A stretch of DNA of 64,000 nucleotides from assembly GCA_033977065.1 (NCBI GenBank), contig JAXCHI010000002.1:256001-320000 (forward strand), written 5' to 3'. The position numbers and the translations under genes are program-made. This document shows, in pieces, positions 1 through 62,457 of the stretch. Below the pieces are notes generated by a model that saw only the letters and a program-made list of their open reading frames with translations, was not told where the DNA came from and did not search any database. The stretch comes from Candidatus Algichlamydia australiensis (lineage in GTDB: Bacteria; Chlamydiota; Chlamydiia; Chlamydiales; JAJFMI01). Position 1 is the first letter of the stretch; each line of letters starts with the position of its first letter.

Positions 1-1787
1 GAACAGTTGACTATGTTGACGGTTTTAAAATTGTGGTTTCACCAAAGGCGAATCCAACAGCAAAAAAGACCTATACACTGCAAAAATTCATGCGTTCCAA
101 CAATGGTACGTGCTTGAACCAAACTCCTCTCTGTCGAGTAGGAGATACTTTTTTAGCAGGTGACATCCTTGCTGATGGTTCTGCGATTGAAAATGGTGAG
201 GTAGCTCTTGGAAAGAACGTTCTTGTTGCGTTTATGCCGTGGTGTGGATACAACTTTGAGGATGCGATCATTCTCTCTGAGAAGCTGATCCGCAATGATG
301 AGTATACCTCCATCCACGTTGAAGAGTTTGAATTGAATGCACGAGAGACTAAGCTCGGTCGTGAGGAGATCACTCGAGATATACCAAATGTTTCTGAAGA
401 GGCTTTAATTGATCTTGGTGAGGATGGTGTCATTCGCACAGGAGCTGAGGTAAAGCCAGGGGATATTCTCGTCGGTAAAATCACGCCAAAAATTGAGACA
501 GAGTTCTCACCTGAAGAGAGACTTTTGCAAGCGATCTTTGGAGAGAAAGCAGCAAATGTTAAAGATGCTTCTTTAATCGCTCCTCCGGGTACAGAAGGTG
601 TTGTGATGACAACGCGTTTCTTAAACCGAAAGGATCGTCTCTCAAAAACGGATGATGAGATTGTTGAAGAGCCTGTTCGTGCGAAAAAGATTCATAAAGA
701 GTTCCAAGAGAAAGAAGAGGAGCTTGAAATGGAGTTCCACGAAAAGCTTGGCGCGCTCTTTATGAATGAGTCTGCACCTCTGCCAATCATGCACCGCAAG
801 ACGGGTAAAGTGATTTTGGATGAGGGAGCAGCATTCACACAAGAAGTGATTGAGAAACTGGAGTCGGAAGACTTAGAAGATCTCATCATTCCTGAACATG
901 AAATTTACGACTCCTATAAGTCCTTTGTTCGTGCGCACAAGCGTGCTCGTCAACAACTTGAGATGGACCACAAGACGGAAATTGAGTACTTGCGAAAAGG
1001 GGATACTGAGCTTGAAGCGGGCGTCATTCGCCAAGTAAAAGTTTATGTCGCTAAGCAATCTAAACTCCAAGTAGGGGATAAGATGGCGGGACGTCACGGA
1101 AACAAAGGTGTTGTTTCTATGATTGTTCCTGAGGCAGATATGCCTTATCTCCCGAATGGTGAGACGGTCGAGATGATTCTTAATCCTCTCGGGGTGCCTT
1201 CTCGTATGAACATTGGACAGCTTCTAGAGACGCACCTCGGATATGCCGCAAAAAAGAAAGGAATTTATGTAAAATCTCCTGTCTTTGAAGGATTCCCTGA
1301 GATCGAAATCTGGAATATGATGCGCGATGCAGGTCTTCCTGAAGATGGTAAGATGATGCTCTACGACGGCCGCACAGGTGAGCGCTTTGACGCATCTGTT
1401 GTTGTTGGAATGATCTATATGATCAAGCTGGGCCACCTTGTCAGCGACAAGATCCATGCTCGTGCTACAGGTCCTTATTCACTTGTTACGCAGCAGCCAC
1501 TTGGTGGTAAAGCGCAGATGGGTGGACAGCGTTTCGGTGAGATGGAGGTGTGGGCACTTGAAGCTTATGGTGCAGCACACATCTTGCAAGAGCTATTAAC
1601 CGTCAAATCTGACGATGTACCGGGAAGAACCTTGATTTACGAATCCATTGTTAAGGGTCACAATACCTTAAAAGCTGGAACCCCCGAATCCTTTAACGTA
1701 CTCCTCAAAGAGATGCAAGGCCTCTGCCTAGATGTGCGTCCCGAAAAAGTTGAGGAAGAAACCTTCATGGAGACAAGCCGTTCATGA
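1..1787 (+). CDS. rpoB: DNA-directed RNA polymerase beta subunit (5'-truncated by window)
   Basis: [29 protein letters not shown] motifs; frame open from position 3. Confidence 0.99.
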
Positions 1788-4700
1788 CACAAGATAGTCA
1801 AAATGAAAACCACTTTGATCGCCTCTCAATCAAAATCGCCTCACGCGAGGTGATTGTAGATGAGTGGTCACGTGGTGAGATCAAAAAGCCTGAGACGATC
1901 AACTACCGCACATTCAAACCAGAGAAGGGAGGCCTCTTCTGTGAGAAGATTTTTGGCCCGACCCGTGACTGGGAGTGTGCCTGTGGAAAGTACAAAAAGA
2001 TCAAGCACAAAGGGATTGTCTGTGATCGATGCGGTGTTGAAGTTACGCTATCAAAGGTGCGTCGTGAGCGCATGGCACACATCGATTTAGCTGTTCCAGT
2101 TGTTCATATCTGGTTTTTCAAAACACAGCCTTCTCGTATTGGAAATATTTTAGGAATGTCCAGCTCAGATCTCGAGCGCATTATCTATTATGAAGAGTAT
2201 GTGGTTACAGATCCAGGTCGCACAACGCTTGAGCGCAAACAGCTCTTAAACGATGCTGAATACCGCGAAGCCCAAGAGAAATGGGGACGCGACTCTTTCT
2301 CCGTTATGATGGGGGGAGAAGCCGTTGCTGAACTCTTGAGAAAAGAAGAACTTGGTGAGCTCGTTGTAGAGCTCAAAGAGAAGCTCCGCCGCACAAAGTC
2401 GATGCAAGCTCGCATGAAGCTTGCAAAGCGTTTGAAGATTGTAGAAACTTTCTCACAATCTCCAAACAATCCCGACTGGATGGTGATGTCGGCTCTGCCG
2501 GTAACACCTCCCGACTTGCGCCCGCTTGTCCCTCTTGATGGTGGCCGTTTTGCTACATCTGATCTCAACGATCTTTATCGCCGTGTGATCAACCGAAACA
2601 ATCGTCTAAAAGCGATTTTAAAGTTGAAAACACCTGATGTCATCATTCGCAATGAGAAGCGCATGCTACAAGAGGCTGTTGACGCTCTCTTTGATAATGG
2701 TCGCCATGGCCATCCTGTGATGGGTGCCGGTAATAGACCTTTGAAATCGCTGTCTGAAATGTTGAAGGGAAAAGGTGGACGTTTCCGTCAAAACCTTCTT
2801 GGAAAGCGTGTTGACTACTCGGGTCGTTCCGTTATTATTGTCGGTCCTGAGCTCAAACTCAACCAGTGCGGTATCCCAAAACGCATGGCCCTAGAGCTCT
2901 TTGAGCCGTTCATTGTGAAGCGCCTCAAAGACCAAGGTTTTGTTTATACCATTCGCTCCGCGAAAAAGATGATCCAGCGTGAAGCACCTGAAGTTTGGGA
3001 TGTACTAGAAGATGTCATTAAAGGACACCCGGTACTCTTAAACCGTGCACCGACTCTTCACAGACTCGGAATTCAGGCCTTCGAGCCAGTCATTATTGAG
3101 GGGAAAGCGATTCGCGTGCACCCTCTTGTTTGTACGGGTTTTAACGCCGACTTTGATGGTGATACGATGTCTGTGCACGTGCCCCTTTCAGTAGAGGCGC
3201 AGTTAGAGGCAAAAATGTTGATGATGGCACCGGATAATATCTTCTTGCCATCTTCAGGAAAGCCTGTTGCCATTCCAACCAAGGATATGATTCTTGGTCT
3301 CTACTATTTGATGCACGATCCGATCTACATTCCAGAAGATCACAATGAGACGACAAAAGTATTTTCTTCTATGGAAGATGTTCTCTTTGTTCTCGATGCG
3401 GGCTTAAGCTACAACCGCTCTCGCGCTGAAGCAAAAGAGATGCGTCAGGACGATACGGGAAATGGTCTTCATATCCACGAGCAGATCAAAGTTCGTGTCG
3501 ATGGTAGTATTATTGTTACAACTCCCGGTCGTGTTATCTTTAACTCTATCGTTCCAAAAGAGCTTGGCTTCCAAAACTACGCTCTTCGTAAGAATGAGAT
3601 GAGTAACCTAATCTTAAACACCTACAAAAAAGTTGGTCTTGAGAGAACGGTTCAATTCTTAGATGACATCAAGAGACTAGGGTTTACTTCTGCAACAAAG
3701 GCAGCAACCTCAATGGGGGTTCAAGACGTTTACAAACCAGAAGTAAAAGAGAAAGCTCTTGCTGATGCGTATAAGCAGGTGGAAAAAGTCCGCAAGCAGT
3801 ACGAAGAAGGGGTGATTACTGACGGGGAACGTCACTCAAAAATTATTAGTATCTGGACGGAAGTAGCCGACGATGTCTCTGATACCCTCTACGATCTGAT
3901 CTCTCAGGTTCGAGGTACAGAGATTAACTCGCTCTTTATGATGCTTGACTCTGGTGCTCGTGGTAACAAGACTCAGGTAAAGCAGCTCGGTGCGATGCGT
4001 GGCTTGATGGCGAAACCGTCGGGTGAGATTTTGGAATCTCCAATTACAGCCTCATTCCGTGAAGGTTTGAGCGTCTTGGAGTACTTTATCTCCTCTCACG
4101 GTGCGCGTAAAGGTCTCTCTGATACAGCCTTGAAAACTGCTGACTCAGGTTACTTAACTCGTCGTCTTGTTGACGTCGCAATTGATGTCCTGATTACCGA
4201 AGATGACTGCGGTACTCTGGGTGGAATTGAAGTATCTGCTATTTCTCAAGGACAGGAGGAATTGCTACCTCTTAAGGATCGTCTTCTTGGACGCACAATC
4301 TGTGAGGATATCTACCAACCTGGTGATCGCACCCAGTTGCTTGGAAAAGCAGGAGAGATTCTAACTGCTGAAAAAGCGGCAAAAATCGATGACGCAGGGA
4401 TTGAATCTGTGAAGGTTCGTTCACCTCTTACATGTGAGAGCAAGCGCGGTATTTGTGCGAAGTGTTACGGAATTAACCTTGCAAATGGCCGTACTGCTGC
4501 CAACGGGGAAGCTGTTGGAATTATTGCTGCACAGTCCATTGGAGAACCAGGTACACAGCTTACGATGAGAACGTTCCACTTAGGTGGTATTGCTTCAGCT
4601 TCTGCTACACCAGAAATTGAAGCGGAGAATGATGCGATTCTTGTCTATTCCGACTTGCGTACTGTACAGAACGAAGATGGCATTTGGCTCGCCTTGAACA

Positions 4701-5941
4701 AAAACGGAAGCCTGCATCTTGTCAAAGATGAGGGGCGTTCACTTGAAGAGTATAAAAAACTTCTTAGCACCAAATCCATCGAGGCTCTGCAATCCTTCCC
4801 AATTCAGTTGGGAACGCAGATTCTCCTTGCTGACGGCGCCAAAGTGAAGAAGGGTGAACGCGTTGCCGTTTGGGAGCAGCACAACGTGCCGATTATCTGT
4901 GAGAAGCCTGGATTTGTAAAGTATGAGGATCTTGTTGAAGGGATCTCTACACAACGCGATGTCAATAAGCAGACGGGCCAAAGTGAAATCGTTGTTAAAC
5001 AGCATCGTGGAGAGTTACACCCGCAGATCATGATCTACGAAGATAGCGAGTGCAAAGAGCTGATCGGAACGTATGCGATTCCATCAGGCGCTTTCCTCTC
5101 TGTTGTCGAAGGACAGCACGTTACAGCAGGAAGTATCCTAGCGCGTATGCCGCGCGGGGCGATTCGCACCAAGGATATCACCGGGGGTCTACCTCGTGTG
5201 GCAGAGCTTGTTGAAGCGCGTCGTCCACGTGATGCTGCTGAAATTGCTAAGATCGATGGAATTGTCGACATCAAAGGTGTGCAGAAAAATAAACGCATTG
5301 TTACAGTTCGCGATCCTGAGTCAGGAATGGAAGAGGAGCACCTCATCCCACTTTCTAAACACTTGATCATTCAGAAAGGTGACTCTGTCATCAAAGGACA
5401 GGAGCTGACGGATGGTCTTGTTGATCCACATGAAATTCTAGATATTTGCGGTGTACGTGAGTTGCAGAAATATCTTGTGAATCAGATTCAGGAAGTCTAT
5501 CGCCTTCAAGGTGTGGATATCAACGATAAACACATCGAGATGATCATCCGACAAATGCTACAGAAAGTGCGTGTAACTGATCCTGGTGACACAACCTTCC
5601 TCTATGGTGAAGATGTAGATAAGAAGCAGTTCCACATTCAAAACCAGAAAGTCTTGGATGAGGGGGGCAAACCTGCACAAGCTGCACCTGTTCTTCTGGG
5701 GATTACAAAAGCCTCTCTTGGAACAGAGAGCTTTGTCTCAGCTGCTTCCTTCATGGAGACCACACGTGTTCTTACCGATGGTGCTGCCGAAGGAAAAGTG
5801 GACAACCTCTTCGATCCAAAGGCATCGATCATCACAGGGCATATGGTCCCATGTGGTACAGGATACTTCGGTTATCGCAATCGCTCAAGAGCGATTCTCG
5901 ATTCTGAGGATGAAGAAGAGCTTGAGTTTGCGTTTAACTAG
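1784..5941 (+). CDS. rpoC: DNA-directed RNA polymerase beta' subunit
   Basis: Zn finger, NADFDGD catalytic loop, [11 protein letters not shown] bridge helix, [12 protein letters not shown] trigger loop. Confidence 0.99.
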
Positions 5942-5985
5942 TACTATGTAACAAAAATAATGCTAAAATTTTCTGTTACAGAGCA
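5942..5985. mobile_element. 44-bp minimal MITE, family A (two terminal repeats only)
   Basis: TACTATGTAACAAAAAT ... ATTTTCTGTTACAGAGCA between CTAG at 5938-5941 and CTAG at 5986-5989. Confidence 0.7.
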
Positions 5986-5989
5986 CTAG

Positions 5990-6467
5990 TACTCTGTAAC
6001 AGAAAATCTTAGTGTTTAATTTAAAAAAACAGCCAATAGAGACAGTCGGGCAAATCCCCGCTGCCCTTTGAGCTTCACCTTGGCATGCCAAATTGCGTTT
6101 CGTCGGAAAACCGTGCAAAGCACTACTTCTTCCTCCTGCACCGCAATTTTTCAAAGCCAATCTGAAGCCATCGAGCGCATCGCGCGTTCATTCCCCACCC
6201 TCCACTTTGTTTCGGGAGGGGCCCCTTTCACGTCGCTTGCGCGGCTGTTTTTTTTGTTTTGCAGAAAACTTTGCAAGGTCTAGACAGCTTTTTCAATCAC
6301 ATACAATCGCTTTACTTTTCACGTTTGGGATCCATTTTTACGTCAAAGCCTCGGGATTGAACTATCGAAAATCACCTCGTATTTGATTAATACTAGGTGA
6401 CTTGCGATAGCCCAATCGCGAGAGCTTTCACGTTAAAAAGAATAGCAAAATTTTCTGTTACAGAGTA
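5990..6467. mobile_element. 478-bp MITE, family A
   Basis: Perfect 18-bp TIR TACTCTGTAACAGAAAAT (5990-6007 / 6450-6467), flanked by CTAG (5986-5989, 6468-6471); no credible ORF. Confidence 0.85.
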
Positions 6468-6492
6468 CTAGTGCAAGAAGTCTATTCTTTTT

Positions 6493-6532
6493 AAAAAGTA
6501 AAGGCCCTACATCTGTAGGGTCTTTACTTTTT
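6493..6532 (+). terminator. Intrinsic (likely bidirectional) terminator after rpoBC
   Basis: AAAAAGTAAAGGCCCTACA-TC-TGTAGGGTCTTTACTTTTT hairpin with A/T tails. Confidence 0.8.
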
Positions 6533-6578
6533 ATTTACCTTTGATTAAGATCCTCTGCTAGAAAAGAGGAAGTCTTAT

Positions 6579-50270: not shown

Positions 50271-50344
50271 TTTTAGATAGCGTCGTCAAAAGCATACAAC
50301 CATCTTATTTTTCATGTTTGGGCTCCATTTTTGTCCAGTACTGA
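50271..50344. mobile_element. Chimeric MITE remnant (family D arm + family E end)
   Basis: 50271-50334 equals reverse complement of 62396-62459; 50327-50344 equals 55031-55048. Confidence 0.8.
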
Positions 50345-55115: not shown

Positions 55116-56732
55116 ATGAAAAAACTGCCCATAGGAATTCAAAACATAAAAAAAGTCTTGGGTGAAGAAGATTACCTATATGTTGATAAAACAGGCTTTA
55201 TTAAAAAATTAATTGACAGTGGAATTCCTCACTATTTCATGTCGCGTCCCCGAAGATTTGGTAAGTCACTTTTTCTCAATACCCTAAAAGAAATTTTTAA
55301 AGGGAATAAAGAGCTCTTCAAAGACCTTGAAATATATAAGAGTGACTATAACTGGTTGGAATATCCAGTCTTGCATTTTGATTTTGCTCGCATTAAAAGC
55401 CGCAATGGCCTTGATTTTGAGAGTGCATTAAAAAGAAAATTGGAGCAAATAGCTACATCTATTGGTATTTCTTCAAATATTTTTACTGTGCAAGAAGGAC
55501 TGGAAGCAATTATCACCAATTTAGCAAAAAGAGAACGAGTAGTAGTTTTAGTCGATGAATATGATAGTGCTATTATTAATAATCTTAGACAACCAGAAAT
55601 TGCCGAGAACAATCGAGACCTTTTAAGAGACTTCTTTGCTACTTTGAAAAGTCTAGACGAATATATTAAGTTTACTTTTGTCACAGGAATAAGTAAGTTT
55701 TCCCAAGTATCTCTTTTTTCAGGACCGAACAATCTAAAAGATATCACGATGGATTCAAGATACTCTGGGATGATGGGCTATACTGAAGACGAACTCAAAA
55801 GCTATTTTTCTCAGCACATTCAGTCAATTATTGAGCATCGAGAAAAAGAGGGGTACAGTGTTACTGAAGACACTATATTGGAGGAGGTACGTGTTTGGTA
55901 CAATGGCTATAGATTTTCTCGTGCAGAAGTGTGTGTTTATAATCCCTTTTCCACACTCAATTATATGGATGAAAAAGAGACAAAAACTTACTGGTATAGC
56001 TCTGGAACACCCTCGTTCCTAATTGACCAGGTAAATAGCTCTCCGCAATCCATTATTCCTTTAAGAGGGATGTCTGCAATAGAGAGTACACTCTCAGATA
56101 TCAGCAGGGTAGATAGAATCAACCTTGCTGCGCTTATGTTTCAGGCAGGGTACTTAACAATTAAAGGGTACAACCCTGAAGAGAGCTCTTATCAACTAGA
56201 TTTTCCAAATAAGGAAGTTAAAGATGCCTTTTTTAACTCTCTTTTGGAAGAATTTACGGAAATCGATCCCATTGAAATTAGCCGCAGCGCTCTAGAAGTT
56301 AAGAAAAGCTTAGAAAACTTGGATATCTTCTTGTTTATAAATACAGTGAATGCCCATTTTGCTAAGATGCCCTACCATGTTTTTGGGCGCGCAAAAGAAG
56401 GGTTTTATCAAGCGGTTTTCTTTACGTTCTTAGAAACAGCAGGTATTAAAACAAGCTCTGAAATAGCGACTAATATTGGGCGTATTGATCTGATGACAGA
56501 GACAGCTGAAGCAATCTGTATTTTTGAGCTCAAACTTGATAAAACTGCGGAGATTGCTTTAACCCAAACAGAAACAAAGAAGTATAAAGAGCGATTTGTC
56601 CAGAGCGAAAAAAACACATTTGTAGTGGGAGTTAACTTCTCTTCTAAGACTCGTAATATTAACGATTGGGAAGGAAAACTTTATTCAGCCTCAGGCCTAC
56701 TCGTAAAAGAGTTCTCTGCGAAAAATAGCTAA
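55116..56732 (+). CDS. AAA-ATPase-like protein with C-terminal PD-(D/E)XK nuclease (DUF1703-type)
   Basis: KLPIGIQ, YVDKT, RPRRFGKS, DEYD, WYNGY, YNPFS, GRIDL..IFELK. Confidence 0.92.
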   Translation: MKKLPIGIQNIKKVLGEEDYLYVDKTGFIKKLIDSGIPHYFMSRPRRFGKSLFLNTLKEIFKGNKELFKDLEIYKSDYNWLEYPVLHFDFARIKSRNGLDFESALKRKLEQIATSIGISSNIFTVQEGLEAIITNLAKRERVVVLVDEYDSAIINNLRQPEIAENNRDLLRDFFATLKSLDEYIKFTFVTGISKFSQVSLFSGPNNLKDITMDSRYSGMMGYTEDELKSYFSQHIQSIIEHREKEGYSVTEDTILEEVRVWYNGYRFSRAEVCVYNPFSTLNYMDEKETKTYWYSSGTPSFLIDQVNSSPQSIIPLRGMSAIESTLSDISRVDRINLAALMFQAGYLTIKGYNPEESSYQLDFPNKEVKDAFFNSLLEEFTEIDPIEISRSALEVKKSLENLDIFLFINTVNAHFAKMPYHVFGRAKEGFYQAVFFTFLETAGIKTSSEIATNIGRIDLMTETAEAICIFELKLDKTAEIALTQTETKKYKERFVQSEKNTFVVGVNFSSKTRNINDWEGKLYSASGLLVKEFSAKNS

Positions 56733-58574: not shown

Positions 58575-58846
58575 TTAGCAGGTTTTTTGGGTCGGGCTAC
58601 GCCCCGCACCCTTCGGCTTTTTTTCGCTTCGCCAAATTGTACTTCATTCGTCGCGCCGTACGCAGTACTGCCACGCCGTCTGAATTCCAATTTTGCTTTG
58701 CGATAACAACCCGTTGTTGCGCTCCGCGCTTCAATACAATATTCCTAGTGCGCGGAGCGGCCTAGAGGCACCAGCAGCCAGGGCAGTGTAGATGACACGG
58801 CGTGGCTGCAGTTTTTTGATTTGGCGCAGCCAGATAGAGACGAACT
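58575..58846. other. GC-rich structured intergenic element (ncRNA or mobile-element core)
   Basis: Multiple hairpins; 58591-58733 aligns with 6045-6190. Confidence 0.55.
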
Positions 58847-58848
58847 AA

Positions 58849-59700
58849 TCAACTATTCCCTGCTTGGATGAGCAACCATGTGGTGGTTGCTGCATTGAAG
58901 AGAATGTGGAGCGAAAGGGGAGCAAAGAGCGAACGCTGCCTCTCGTAAATAAACCCAAGAAAGAGTCCAAGGCCAAAAAGTACTGGGAGGAGAATAAAGT
59001 TAGCCACCTCCTGCTGTATGGAAAAGTGGAGCAGAGAGAAGCCCAGAGAGGAGAGGAGAATAGCGGATTTTGTGCCCAATTTTTTGCGTAGATAGCTTTG
59101 TAGTAAAAGGCGAAAAAGAAACTCTTCCACAAAGGGACCAATGAAGATGATGATCAGCACCATTGGAATGAGAAGATGAGGGTGGCCAATCATCTCTTTT
59201 AAAACCCGTACGGCAATCTGCTCAGGTCCTAGAGTACCGAAGATAGTGAGGACAAGGGCTGCTAAGGTTTGACTTAAGAAAAATATAAGGGGGAGAGAGA
59301 TCAGATAGGTAAGTAGGCCGATTGTAATATCATAGCCAGGGCTGGAACTGTTTTGATCTTTAAAGAGGTGTTTAATTGAATTTTTTTTACAAAATTTAAA
59401 GTAGAAAAAGAAGAGAAGGGGAATGAGGAGAAAGGCGAGGAAGTTCACATAAGCAAGAAGTTCAATAAGAGATGTAGTCGTCGCCTTATACTTCAAAACT
59501 ATAAGAGGAGAGAGGAGAGTTGTGCTGCCGAAATAGATGAAAAAGCCAATGGCAATGTCATACCAATAAAGAGGTACTTGCTCTGACCAATTTTGCGTGA
59601 TAGAAAAGTAGCCTTTTCGTTTTGCATAGTACAAAACAAGGAAAGCGATCAGTCCAAGAAGAAGGATCCCGCGAAGGGGGAGGAGCTCTTGTGGAGTCAT
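58849..59700 (-). CDS. CPBP (CAAX/Abi) intramembrane metalloprotease
   Basis: PFVEEFLFR, FSLLH, HILFN. Confidence 0.93.
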   Translation of the reverse strand: MTPQELLPLRGILLLGLIAFLVLYYAKRKGYFSITQNWSEQVPLYWYDIAIGFFIYFGSTTLLSPLIVLKYKATTTSLIELLAYVNFLAFLLIPLLFFFYFKFCKKNSIKHLFKDQNSSSPGYDITIGLLTYLISLPLIFFLSQTLAALVLTIFGTLGPEQIAVRVLKEMIGHPHLLIPMVLIIIFIGPFVEEFLFRLLLQSYLRKKLGTKSAILLSSLGFSLLHFSIQQEVANFILLPVLFGLGLFLGFIYERQRSLFAPLSLHILFNAATTTWLLIQAGNS

Positions 59701-62290: not shown

Positions 62291-62457
62291 TTAGATAGTG
62301 TCGTCAAAAGGCTATAATCAGATTATTTTTCATGTTTGCAGCTTATTTTTGTGCGGAAATTGAAGCTGAATTTGTAAATTCCGCTTCATTTGAGCACAAA
62401 AATGGAGCCCAAACATGAAAAATAAGATGGTTGTATGCTTTTGACGACGCTATCTAA
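62291..62457. mobile_element. 167-bp palindromic MITE, family D
   Basis: TTAGATAG(T/C)GTCGTCAAAAG inverted ends; self-complementarity extends ~60 bp per arm. Confidence 0.85.

Follow-up and report, generated by a model that had tools for sequence, protein, structure and literature searches.

A structured motif of about 145 nucleotides (nt) lies at positions 6045–6190 of a 64,000-nt stretch of the genome of Candidatus Algichlamydia australiensis (contig JAXCHI010000002.1, positions 256,001 to 320,000; this whole stretch is referred to here as the window), with a second copy 52 kb away. An earlier note on the window had proposed the motif as a candidate for an undescribed non-coding RNA (ncRNA) or single-stranded DNA element carried by a non-autonomous transposon. 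We find that both copies belong to a repeat family dispersed through the genome. The interpretation that we favor, with a probability of about 0.58, is that the motif forms the structured core (the "rod") of small, non-coding, non-autonomous repeats of environmental chlamydiae that resemble miniature inverted-repeat transposable elements (MITEs). On our best reading the family adds a further example to an already known kind of element and does not represent a new kind of RNA gene. The observations behind this interpretation are the number of copies, the fold and its covariation, the presence or absence of copies in sister species, their membership in inverted-repeat elements, their patchy distribution and their lack of coding capacity. 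The observation made in the earlier note is confirmed, and its interpretation is partly supported.

A dispersed repeat family in the genome of the window

The two stretches aligned in the earlier note (copy 1 at 6045–6190 and copy 2 at 58591–58733) are both present and are collinear, with a mean column identity of 72% (MAFFT, 6030–6260 against 58575–58800) that includes the sequence blocks listed there. The named stems are also as described, with GTGC/GCAC in copy 1 standing against GTAC/GTAC in copy 2, TGGC/GCCA against TCGC/GCGA, and AAATTG/CAATTT common to both. Taken as a pair, the two copies show only modest similarity. Their local alignment score of 27 lies above that of 500 dinucleotide shuffles (17.0 ± 2.25, z 4.5), but the best shuffle also reaches 27, and neither copy retrieves the other at E ≤ 1 in a single-sequence nhmmer search. 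What makes their kinship unambiguous is that both belong to one repeat family. Iterating an nhmmer profile from copy 2 until convergence yields 51 non-overlapping matches in the genome of the window (G000; 1,799,045 bp in seven contigs), which include copy 1 (E 8.4e-30) and copy 2 (E 2e-26). A covariance model, R1, retrieves all 51 of these matches and scores copy 1 at 86.7 bits (E 3e-19) and copy 2 at 114.5 bits (E 2.4e-26), both on the minus strand. The copies are scattered over all large contigs. What exists in place of the envisaged two-copy ncRNA locus is a repeat family spread through the genome, and sister species differ in which of its members they possess.

Seventeen of the 51 matches lie in a MITE that we call MITE A, and the other 34 are free-standing. 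The free-standing copies, which include the window match at 58602–58730 and a partial inverted copy at 58770–58844 of the window (nhmmer profile E 7.6e-10), are only 70–85% alike; this partial copy and the other free-standing copies (about 34) go beyond what the earlier note described. MITE A is about 410 bp long and starts with CTAGTACTCTGTAACAG, and full copies end with the inverted sequence and CTAG. The 156 bases around copy 1 occur 17 times in the genome at 97–100% identity, and the module lies inside all 17 copies of MITE A, whose inverted repeats are, as had been noticed, missing from copy 2. Twelve of the 17 MITE-A copies are 99.2–100% identical and five are 91.9–94.6% identical. The idea that the 6045–6190 copy is cargo of a non-autonomous transposon thus holds, and the transposon is a recently amplified one (17 copies, 91.9–100% identity).

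The alignment of the copies falls into subfamilies, namely a short form beginning at the outer-helix base, forms with a GC hairpin on their 5′ side (GTCGGGGC...GCCCC), the variant carried by MITE A, and a form with an extra hairpin near its 3′ end. Units in the genome of the window begin with TAGAGACAGTCGGGG, which is related to the ends of elements in two other genomes (G009 and G151; see below). This end motif is confined to the 5′ side of units of subfamilies II and Ib, except that three copies retain a remnant of it, inverted, in their 3′ tail. For subfamily I, the role of inverted ends could fall to the basal helices of the rod.

Of 45 copies, at most 15 are open in any one reading frame, which indicates that the element is non-coding. 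A search of Rfam 15 gave no match at gathering score in the window, and the suggestion that the motif falls outside the families already described there stands. At E ≤ 1 a single element is touched by an Rfam match, which is noise from a miRNA-precursor family (mir-3179, E 0.012, at 321–415 of locus L040); other matches to miRNA precursors (L063 2459–2629) fall outside the two R1 matches of their locus. The Rfam matches near rod copies are to RNase P and a tRNA. We note that one rod copy is 16 nt away from the gene for RNase P RNA (150 bits, truncated at the locus end; L034 451–731, contig C3:600242–600522, minus strand). A literature search returned no description of this repeat element: the excerpt of PMC11317633 reports 11 transposases and leaves DNA repeats unmentioned, and the excerpt of PMC2878342 speaks of many repeats in Waddlia and of nothing more specific.

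Conservation and polarity of the fold

All of the copies form a long irregular hairpin, and the 126-nt core is an irregular rod of 43 pairs in a structure that we drew by hand. For the strand read in the earlier note RNAalifold gives 17 pairs and −13.82 kcal/mol, and for the complementary strand 27 pairs and −24.15 kcal/mol, with compensatory changes in 22 of these 27 pairs. Among 27 copies from the genome of the window aligned with MAFFT, 86.4% of the cells are paired, as against 71.7 ± 0.7% in shuffles and 34.7–44.2% with slid partners; both-sided changes occur in 33 of the 43 pairs, and none of 500 shuffles attains the observed values. Among 45 distinct copies from this genome and that of a congener (G001, the sister species) aligned to R1, the paired cells amount to 91.3% (34.7–44.3% with slid partners), both-sided changes are found in 38 of the 43 pairs, and double-changed cells number 288, compared to 95.8 ± 6.9 in shuffles. 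Since the 45-copy alignment was fitted to R1 it leans toward the model, a bias of which the 27-copy MAFFT count is free. The fold that had been read from two copies is therefore real. The compensatory changes lie far above both controls (shuffles and slid partners), and it follows that there is constraint on a fold of the single strand, or on a strict hairpin at the least. Free-standing copies differ in sequence by 15–30%, and the best of them retain 40–43 of the 43 pairs; we considered the neutral decay of one master copy, which is ruled out because pairing has been retained despite this divergence.

Conservation of sequence is concentrated in the basal helices, in a GCAAAGC internal-loop motif present on both arms and in the apical stem (of the GUGC/GCAC type). 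The middle helix varies across chlamydial families, even in length, and it is in this long helix that the both-sided changes are concentrated. GCAAAGC has the same orientation on both arms, and the hairpin therefore has a polarity. The two strands also differ in how well they fold: the complementary strand is the more stable one in 27 of 29 copies from the genome of the window and in 28 of 30 copies from the sister species (mean differences of 9.7 and 8.4 kcal/mol), and its ratios of G-U to A-C are 70:27 and 67:24, respectively. G009 is without this asymmetry (22 of 34 copies, 1.0 kcal/mol, G-U:A-C 39:121).

Turnover between species and inverted-repeat elements in relatives

The genes that flank copy 2 are 338 nt apart in the genome of the window and 31 nt apart in the sister species (contig C61), where the site is thus empty. 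We compared 20 loci of the sister species, carrying 31 copies, against the genome of the window. At eight of these loci both flanks map together in the genome of the window, which is rod-less at seven of the eight. Where both species carry copies in the same gap, these are 49–65% identical (78% in one pair) and are no closer than paralogues, which suggests either hot spots or rapid turnover. The 78% pair (G001 L215:4342 and G000 C3:138214) was the sole candidate for in-place compensatory change in orthologues and we set it aside, because by eye the two copies are no closer than paralogues within the genome of the window and orthology cannot be claimed for them.

Matches to R1 are present in 6 of 41 genomes of the order, with 71 in the sister species, 66 in G009 and one to five in three others; a genome of the same family (G002, 90% complete) has none. 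Homologs beyond the two original copies extend further, since an R1 search across the phylum found the rod in at least 21 of 150 sampled Chlamydiota genomes, a number that is a floor because only 23 candidates were scored per genome. By family, the carriers are 9 of 22 genomes (f8), 6 of 17 (f41), 3 of 19 (f5), 2 of 17 (f32) and 0 of 26 (f36). The distribution is thus patchy, with bursts of identical copies.

In G009, 17 of 19 loci consist of an element of 465–615 bp with inverted ends (AGACATGTCGGG / CCCGACATGTCT) and one rod per arm, the two rods facing each other. TA is found at both junctions in 10 of the 17 elements and at one or both junctions in 16. Elements in G151 have the same architecture as those in G009 with still longer inverted ends, and this genome also contains tandem partial arms and mini-elements that consist of nothing but the ends; at L264 640–2720 (C1:1847640–1849720) part of a rod arm is repeated four times in tandem, with a unit of 178 bp. 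Homology over about 250 nt links the MITE-A cargo unit of the window (6030–6247) to one arm of the elements in G009 and G151. In other chlamydial families, then, the module sits within elements bounded by terminal inverted repeats. This is a signature of mobile DNA and not of an RNA gene, and it argues against the RNA-gene interpretation that had been given to the motif.

Mobility and the forces that keep the hairpin

We propose that MITE A took up one 218-nt unit, seen as copy 1, and then recently amplified it to 17 copies, and that copy 2 is a free-standing two-arm member whose gain, or loss from the sister lineage, would postdate the split of the two Algichlamydia-like species. Mobilization would occur in trans, through a transposase that these genomes have lost or that is missing from their assemblies and that, to judge from the TA junctions, may be of the IS630/Tc1 type. 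The hairpin may have been retained since only copies able to fold spread or persist. Insertion at the 3′ ends of genes would then place the rod in the 3′ untranslated region (UTR) as a strong RNA hairpin, predicted often to be followed by a run of T.

Several points weigh against this proposal. Cut-and-paste transposition of a MITE gives no reason to expect that its non-coding interior would be conserved across families, or be 91% paired at 70–85% identity; a further constraint is acting on the rod. Free-standing copies in the two Algichlamydia species lack a clean pair of terminal inverted repeats and a clear target duplication, and their junctions are fuzzy because filled and empty sites are only about 70% identical. 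The usual C-to-T biases of transcription and replication would be expected to act in the direction opposite to the strand asymmetry that we see. The free-standing copies in the genome of the window are, in addition, oriented 25:9 with respect to GC skew (the strand read in the earlier note is the G-rich one in 25 of 34); among the MITE-A copies this strand is G-rich in 8 of 17. We found no autonomous element with matching ends in genomes that are 76–99% complete and with a search that covered only a few families, and PF13358, the IS630-type DDE domain, has no match in G000, G001 or G009. Taken together, the conservation of the fold across families, the strand asymmetry, the orientation bias and the absent enzyme leave room for a minority interpretation in which the folded strand would itself be the substrate of a mobilizing system.

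We note that the GC skew of contig C3 changes sign, from negative to positive, at about 340–360 kb, which probably marks a replication origin or terminus.

Two candidate partners for the rod elements were rejected. The ends of an IS5-like element in the genome of the window differ from those of the rod elements. A DDE gene located between rod-element ends in G151 belongs to a separate insertion sequence with its own ends and an 8-bp duplication; it encodes a 363-aa DDE_5/DDE_Tnp_1 transposase and is inserted in the middle of a rod element (L264), the only pair of rod ends 1.7 kb apart being there. The IS5-like element is present as two 99.8%-identical copies of 1110 bp (C2:397645–398754 and C3:388891–390000), with a DDE_Tnp_1 match that contains stop codons, ends GGCCTTGTTGCG and a 7–9-bp duplication. 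In the same genome, facing rods spaced about 1 kb apart surround an open reading frame (ORF) of 321 aa (L225 1024–2260, C3:505023–506260; ORF at C3:505073–506026), the last ~25 codons of which extend into the left rod. This ORF has no Pfam match, and at its locus in the sister species two facing rods lie about 560 nt apart.

Of the alternatives, the one that survives best, although we consider it unlikely, is that the rod is an RNA element of the 3′ UTR selected by the host, which would act by terminating or insulating transcription or by protecting the mRNA at its 3′ end, as has been proposed for REP, ERIC and SPRITE repeats; mobility would then explain only how the rod arrived at its site. 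The placement of the copies speaks for such a role. By a rough gene prediction (greedy choice of ORFs with an ATG start and a length of 90 aa or more), 30 of the 34 free-standing copies in the genome of the window lie outside predicted ORFs, and in 12 of the 34 a frame of at least 99 codons ends 22–33 nt before the GCCAAAT anchor. In the sister species, 21 of 28 copies have a co-oriented gene whose stop codon is adjacent to their 5′ side, and 12 of the 22 copies that can be classified lie between convergent genes. A run of five or more T follows within 45 nt downstream (in the orientation of the earlier note) in 26 of 52 copies, compared with 10 of 52 for a run of five or more A, and the cargo unit itself terminates in a hairpin followed by T8. 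Gene-end placement is, however, largely expected because copies land in short gaps at the ends of genes, and the gene-orientation bias is mostly automatic because insertion falls between convergent genes. A strong gene-orientation bias was accordingly set aside, given that in co-directional gaps the ratio of sense to antisense copies is only 13:5 in the genome of the window (by our own reading) and 3:3 in the sister species. Further evidence also runs counter to a role in ending transcription. The T run typically lies 8–15 nt past the nearest hairpin, no terminator-like site was found at copy 2, two copies in the genome of the window stand directly 3′ of perfect terminators and so are not themselves the terminator, and the better-folding strand is mostly antisense to the upstream gene. 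Moreover, different genes carry the rod in the sister species, and no particular gene therefore needs it.

A second alternative, which we regard as doubtful, holds that the rod is a structure-specific substrate of recombination, in which a polar folded strand of DNA or RNA would be recognized by a protein and would itself be the mobile unit, in the manner of attC sites or of REP sequences and their RAYT enzymes. The inverted-repeat elements would then be mere carriers, and the enzyme would be one not yet recognized in environmental chlamydiae. If true, this would explain why the rod occurs both free, with boundaries consistently at the base of the outer helix, and in at least three vehicles (MITE A, elements of the type TA followed by GACATGTC, and the longer ends of G151), why its loops and basal helices are conserved around a freely covarying middle helix, why GCAAAGC points the same way on both arms of a polar hairpin, and why two species show a strand bias of 8–10 kcal/mol and an orientation of 25:9 against GC skew is seen. 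That orientation bias, however, comes from 34 copies that are not independent, G009 has no strand asymmetry, and no candidate enzyme emerged. The partners suggested in the earlier note (a Y1/HUH nuclease, TnpB or a reverse transcriptase) do not co-occur with the module. Y1_Tnp (PF01797) has no match in G000 or G009, two of the rod-rich genomes, although 19 of the 41 genomes are positive overall, in a manner unrelated to rods; in the sister species there is one weak match (22.8 bits, E 7.6e-5) that rises to 23.2 bits, against a cut-off of 23 bits, only with the addition of in-frame neighbors. TnpB (PF07282) has no match in G000, G001 or G009, and the reverse transcriptase domain RVT_1 (PF00078) has none in six carriers (G000, G001, G009, G021, G026 and G035), for which reason we also dropped a retroposon-like origin that we had considered for the A runs on the better-folding strand. 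The distribution of genes encoding AAA-ATPase_like and PD-(D/E)XK domains among relatives does not follow that of rods either. One such gene, for a 538-aa protein with AAA-ATPase_like and PDDEXK_9 domains, is found in the window (55116–56732, plus strand), and it exists in three copies at 70% identity or more, one each on contigs C1 (the plasmid), C2 and C4.

It is improbable, in our estimation, that no selection is involved and that template-switching within quasi-palindromes has copied one arm to the other, imitating compensatory change. Template-switching during replication is well established as a mutational process that corrects quasi-palindromes; the rod element forms a long palindrome in DNA, and its double changes are concentrated in the middle helix. 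Template-switching should nevertheless erase asymmetries, and asymmetries are what the rod keeps: the unpaired GCAAAGC/GGCAAAG loops and the unequal arms are maintained in two species and across families, U-G is kept at one basal pair (26 U-G and 16 U-A among 45 copies), and G-U exceeds A-C on one strand by 137:51 in the two Algichlamydia genomes combined. That the copies are a family of stand-alone small-RNA genes, for which strong covariation and the lack of coding capacity might speak, is the least credible of the explanations, given that the copies have no conserved flank or promoter, differ between sister species, lie in both orientations within inverted-repeat elements and match no Rfam family.

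Relation to known repeats and anatomy of the two window sites

The MITE-like interpretation places the rod beside several described families. Like members of the MITE class, it is short, multi-copy (51 matches of about 130 nt in the genome of the window) and without a transposase gene, and it shows insertion polymorphism between the two Algichlamydia species. Correia elements (CREE/NEMIS) of Neisseria duplicate TA and fold into an RNA hairpin; their conservation is mainly in the 26-bp ends, and they contain promoters and an IHF site. The rod resembles them, as they are described in the excerpt of PMC3184786, in that both are short, non-autonomous and intergenic and vary between close relatives (strains in the case of Correia elements); terminal inverted repeats are shared by the rod elements of G009 and G151. 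Unlike Correia elements, rod units in the genome of the window have poorly kept ends and a conserved, covarying internal hairpin, and no promoter was found to accompany the copies. The same excerpt defines MITEs, which fold into long hairpins, lists ERIC, Correia, bcr1 and SPRITE, states that ERIC-type repeats have TA at both termini, and describes how in bcr1, from the Bacillus cereus group, compensatory base-pair changes preserve structure at the level of RNA (PMC3184786). Compared by description and not by sequence, the rod is like ERIC of enterobacteria and bcr1 (intergenic, palindromic, MITE-like repeats of ~130–155 bp) in its size, its intergenic position, its non-conserved distribution and its long imperfect hairpin (PMC3184786, excerpt), and like bcr1 it carries compensatory changes that keep that hairpin. 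It differs from both in that the module is conserved across several chlamydial families and occurs in at least three inverted-repeat vehicles. SPRITE, outlined in the excerpt as a repeat at gene 3′ ends made of a hairpin and a T run (PMC3184786), has a likeness in the cargo unit, which ends in a 5-pair GC stem and T8. The main rod, unlike SPRITE, has about 43 pairs, its T run does not follow directly, and just 26 of the 52 copies have one within 45 nt.

An attC site is an imperfect palindrome with conserved ends and a variable paired center; it lies after stop codons, folds better on one strand and is oriented with respect to replication. In outline the rod is like attC sites of integrons without being one of them. 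There are no cassette arrays (IntI itself was not searched for), the element stands alone, without a gene, and is present or absent as such, and the consensus of the 45-copy alignment has no core of the GTTRRRY type. REP/REPIN-RAYT systems, the ends of IS200/IS605 elements and the guide RNA of TnpB likewise involve hairpin repeats or RNAs from transposon ends whose active form is a folded single strand, with REPs being 20–40 nt long. Unlike in REP/RAYT and IS200/IS605 systems, the Y1 transposase/RAYT domain and TnpB were not found in the genomes richest in rods.

The family provides a defined repeat, with a covariance model, for environmental chlamydiae, whose repeats are barely described, and it marks gene 3′ ends that differ between sister species. 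It also explains many assembly breaks, because copies in the sister species are often at contig ends. Clean covariation (in 38 of 43 pairs) within mobile DNA is a caution for screens that equate covariation with an RNA gene, and the copies constitute a natural data set on what keeps hairpins intact in non-coding transposons. Were the folded strand itself the mobile unit, a structure-specific mobilization system would await discovery in Chlamydiota.

At the first window site a 1385-aa ORF that we read as rpoC (1784–5941) ends in a TAG stop codon (5939–5941) within CTAG (5938–5941), the sequence found at the junctions of MITE-A family elements. When an element inserts into a CTAG, or a TA, inside a stop codon, a stop is restored, and this may be why elements gather there. 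Between two CTAG sequences lies a mini-element of MITE-A type that consists of terminal inverted repeats only (5938–5989, no strand assigned); it flanks the MITE-A copy, and a hairpin of 16–20 pairs spans 5964–6011. The MITE-A copy itself, with its left terminal inverted repeat and body, occupies 5986–6340 on the plus strand, and the 17 copies align over more than 300 nt. Its own right end is absent and is replaced by the right part of another MITE of about 163 bp (6334–6472, plus strand), which has terminal inverted repeats like those of MITE A and is fused to the truncated element. The 218-nt cargo unit (6030–6247, plus strand; rod subfamily II) starts with CAGCC, ends with GGCTG and is flanked by A7 (6023–6029) and T8 (6248–6255). 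It contains the end motif TAGAGACAGTCGGGC (6037–6051, plus strand), the counterpart of the terminal inverted repeat (TA followed by GACATGTCGGGG) of the related G009 and G151 elements, and then the rod core of copy 1 (6065–6190, best on the minus strand), and its 3′ end is formed by the terminator-like 5-pair GC hairpin that precedes T8 (6232–6255, plus strand). The native terminator of the upstream gene (6492–6533) lies 3′ of the ~163-bp MITE. Three elements of the MITE-A family are thus stacked between the stop codon of the rpoC-like ORF and that terminator (5938–6533).

At the second site a two-arm element occupies the gap between two minus-strand ORFs. A short GC hairpin (GTCGGGC...GCCCCGC; 58591–58607, plus strand) that is common to subfamilies Ib and II precedes the free-standing rod core of copy 2 (58609–58734, minus strand; subfamily I), in which 35 of the 43 model pairs are Watson-Crick and one is G-U. 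An inner hairpin (GCGCTCCGCGC / GCGCGGAGCG; 58709–58750, no strand assigned), found likewise at locus L212 of the sister species, links this arm to the partial inverted second rod (58770–58844, minus strand), which covers profile positions 12–84 and abuts the stop codon of the minus-strand ORF 58849–59700.

We also observed 59 bases near the 3′ end of MITE A (6281–6339, and again at 50274–50332 and 62398–62456) that have about 36 other matches in the genome, at ~76% identity and mutually alike. Judged from sequence, they look like a separate high-copy family of palindromic repeats, one copy of which is visible in the genome of the window at locus L216.

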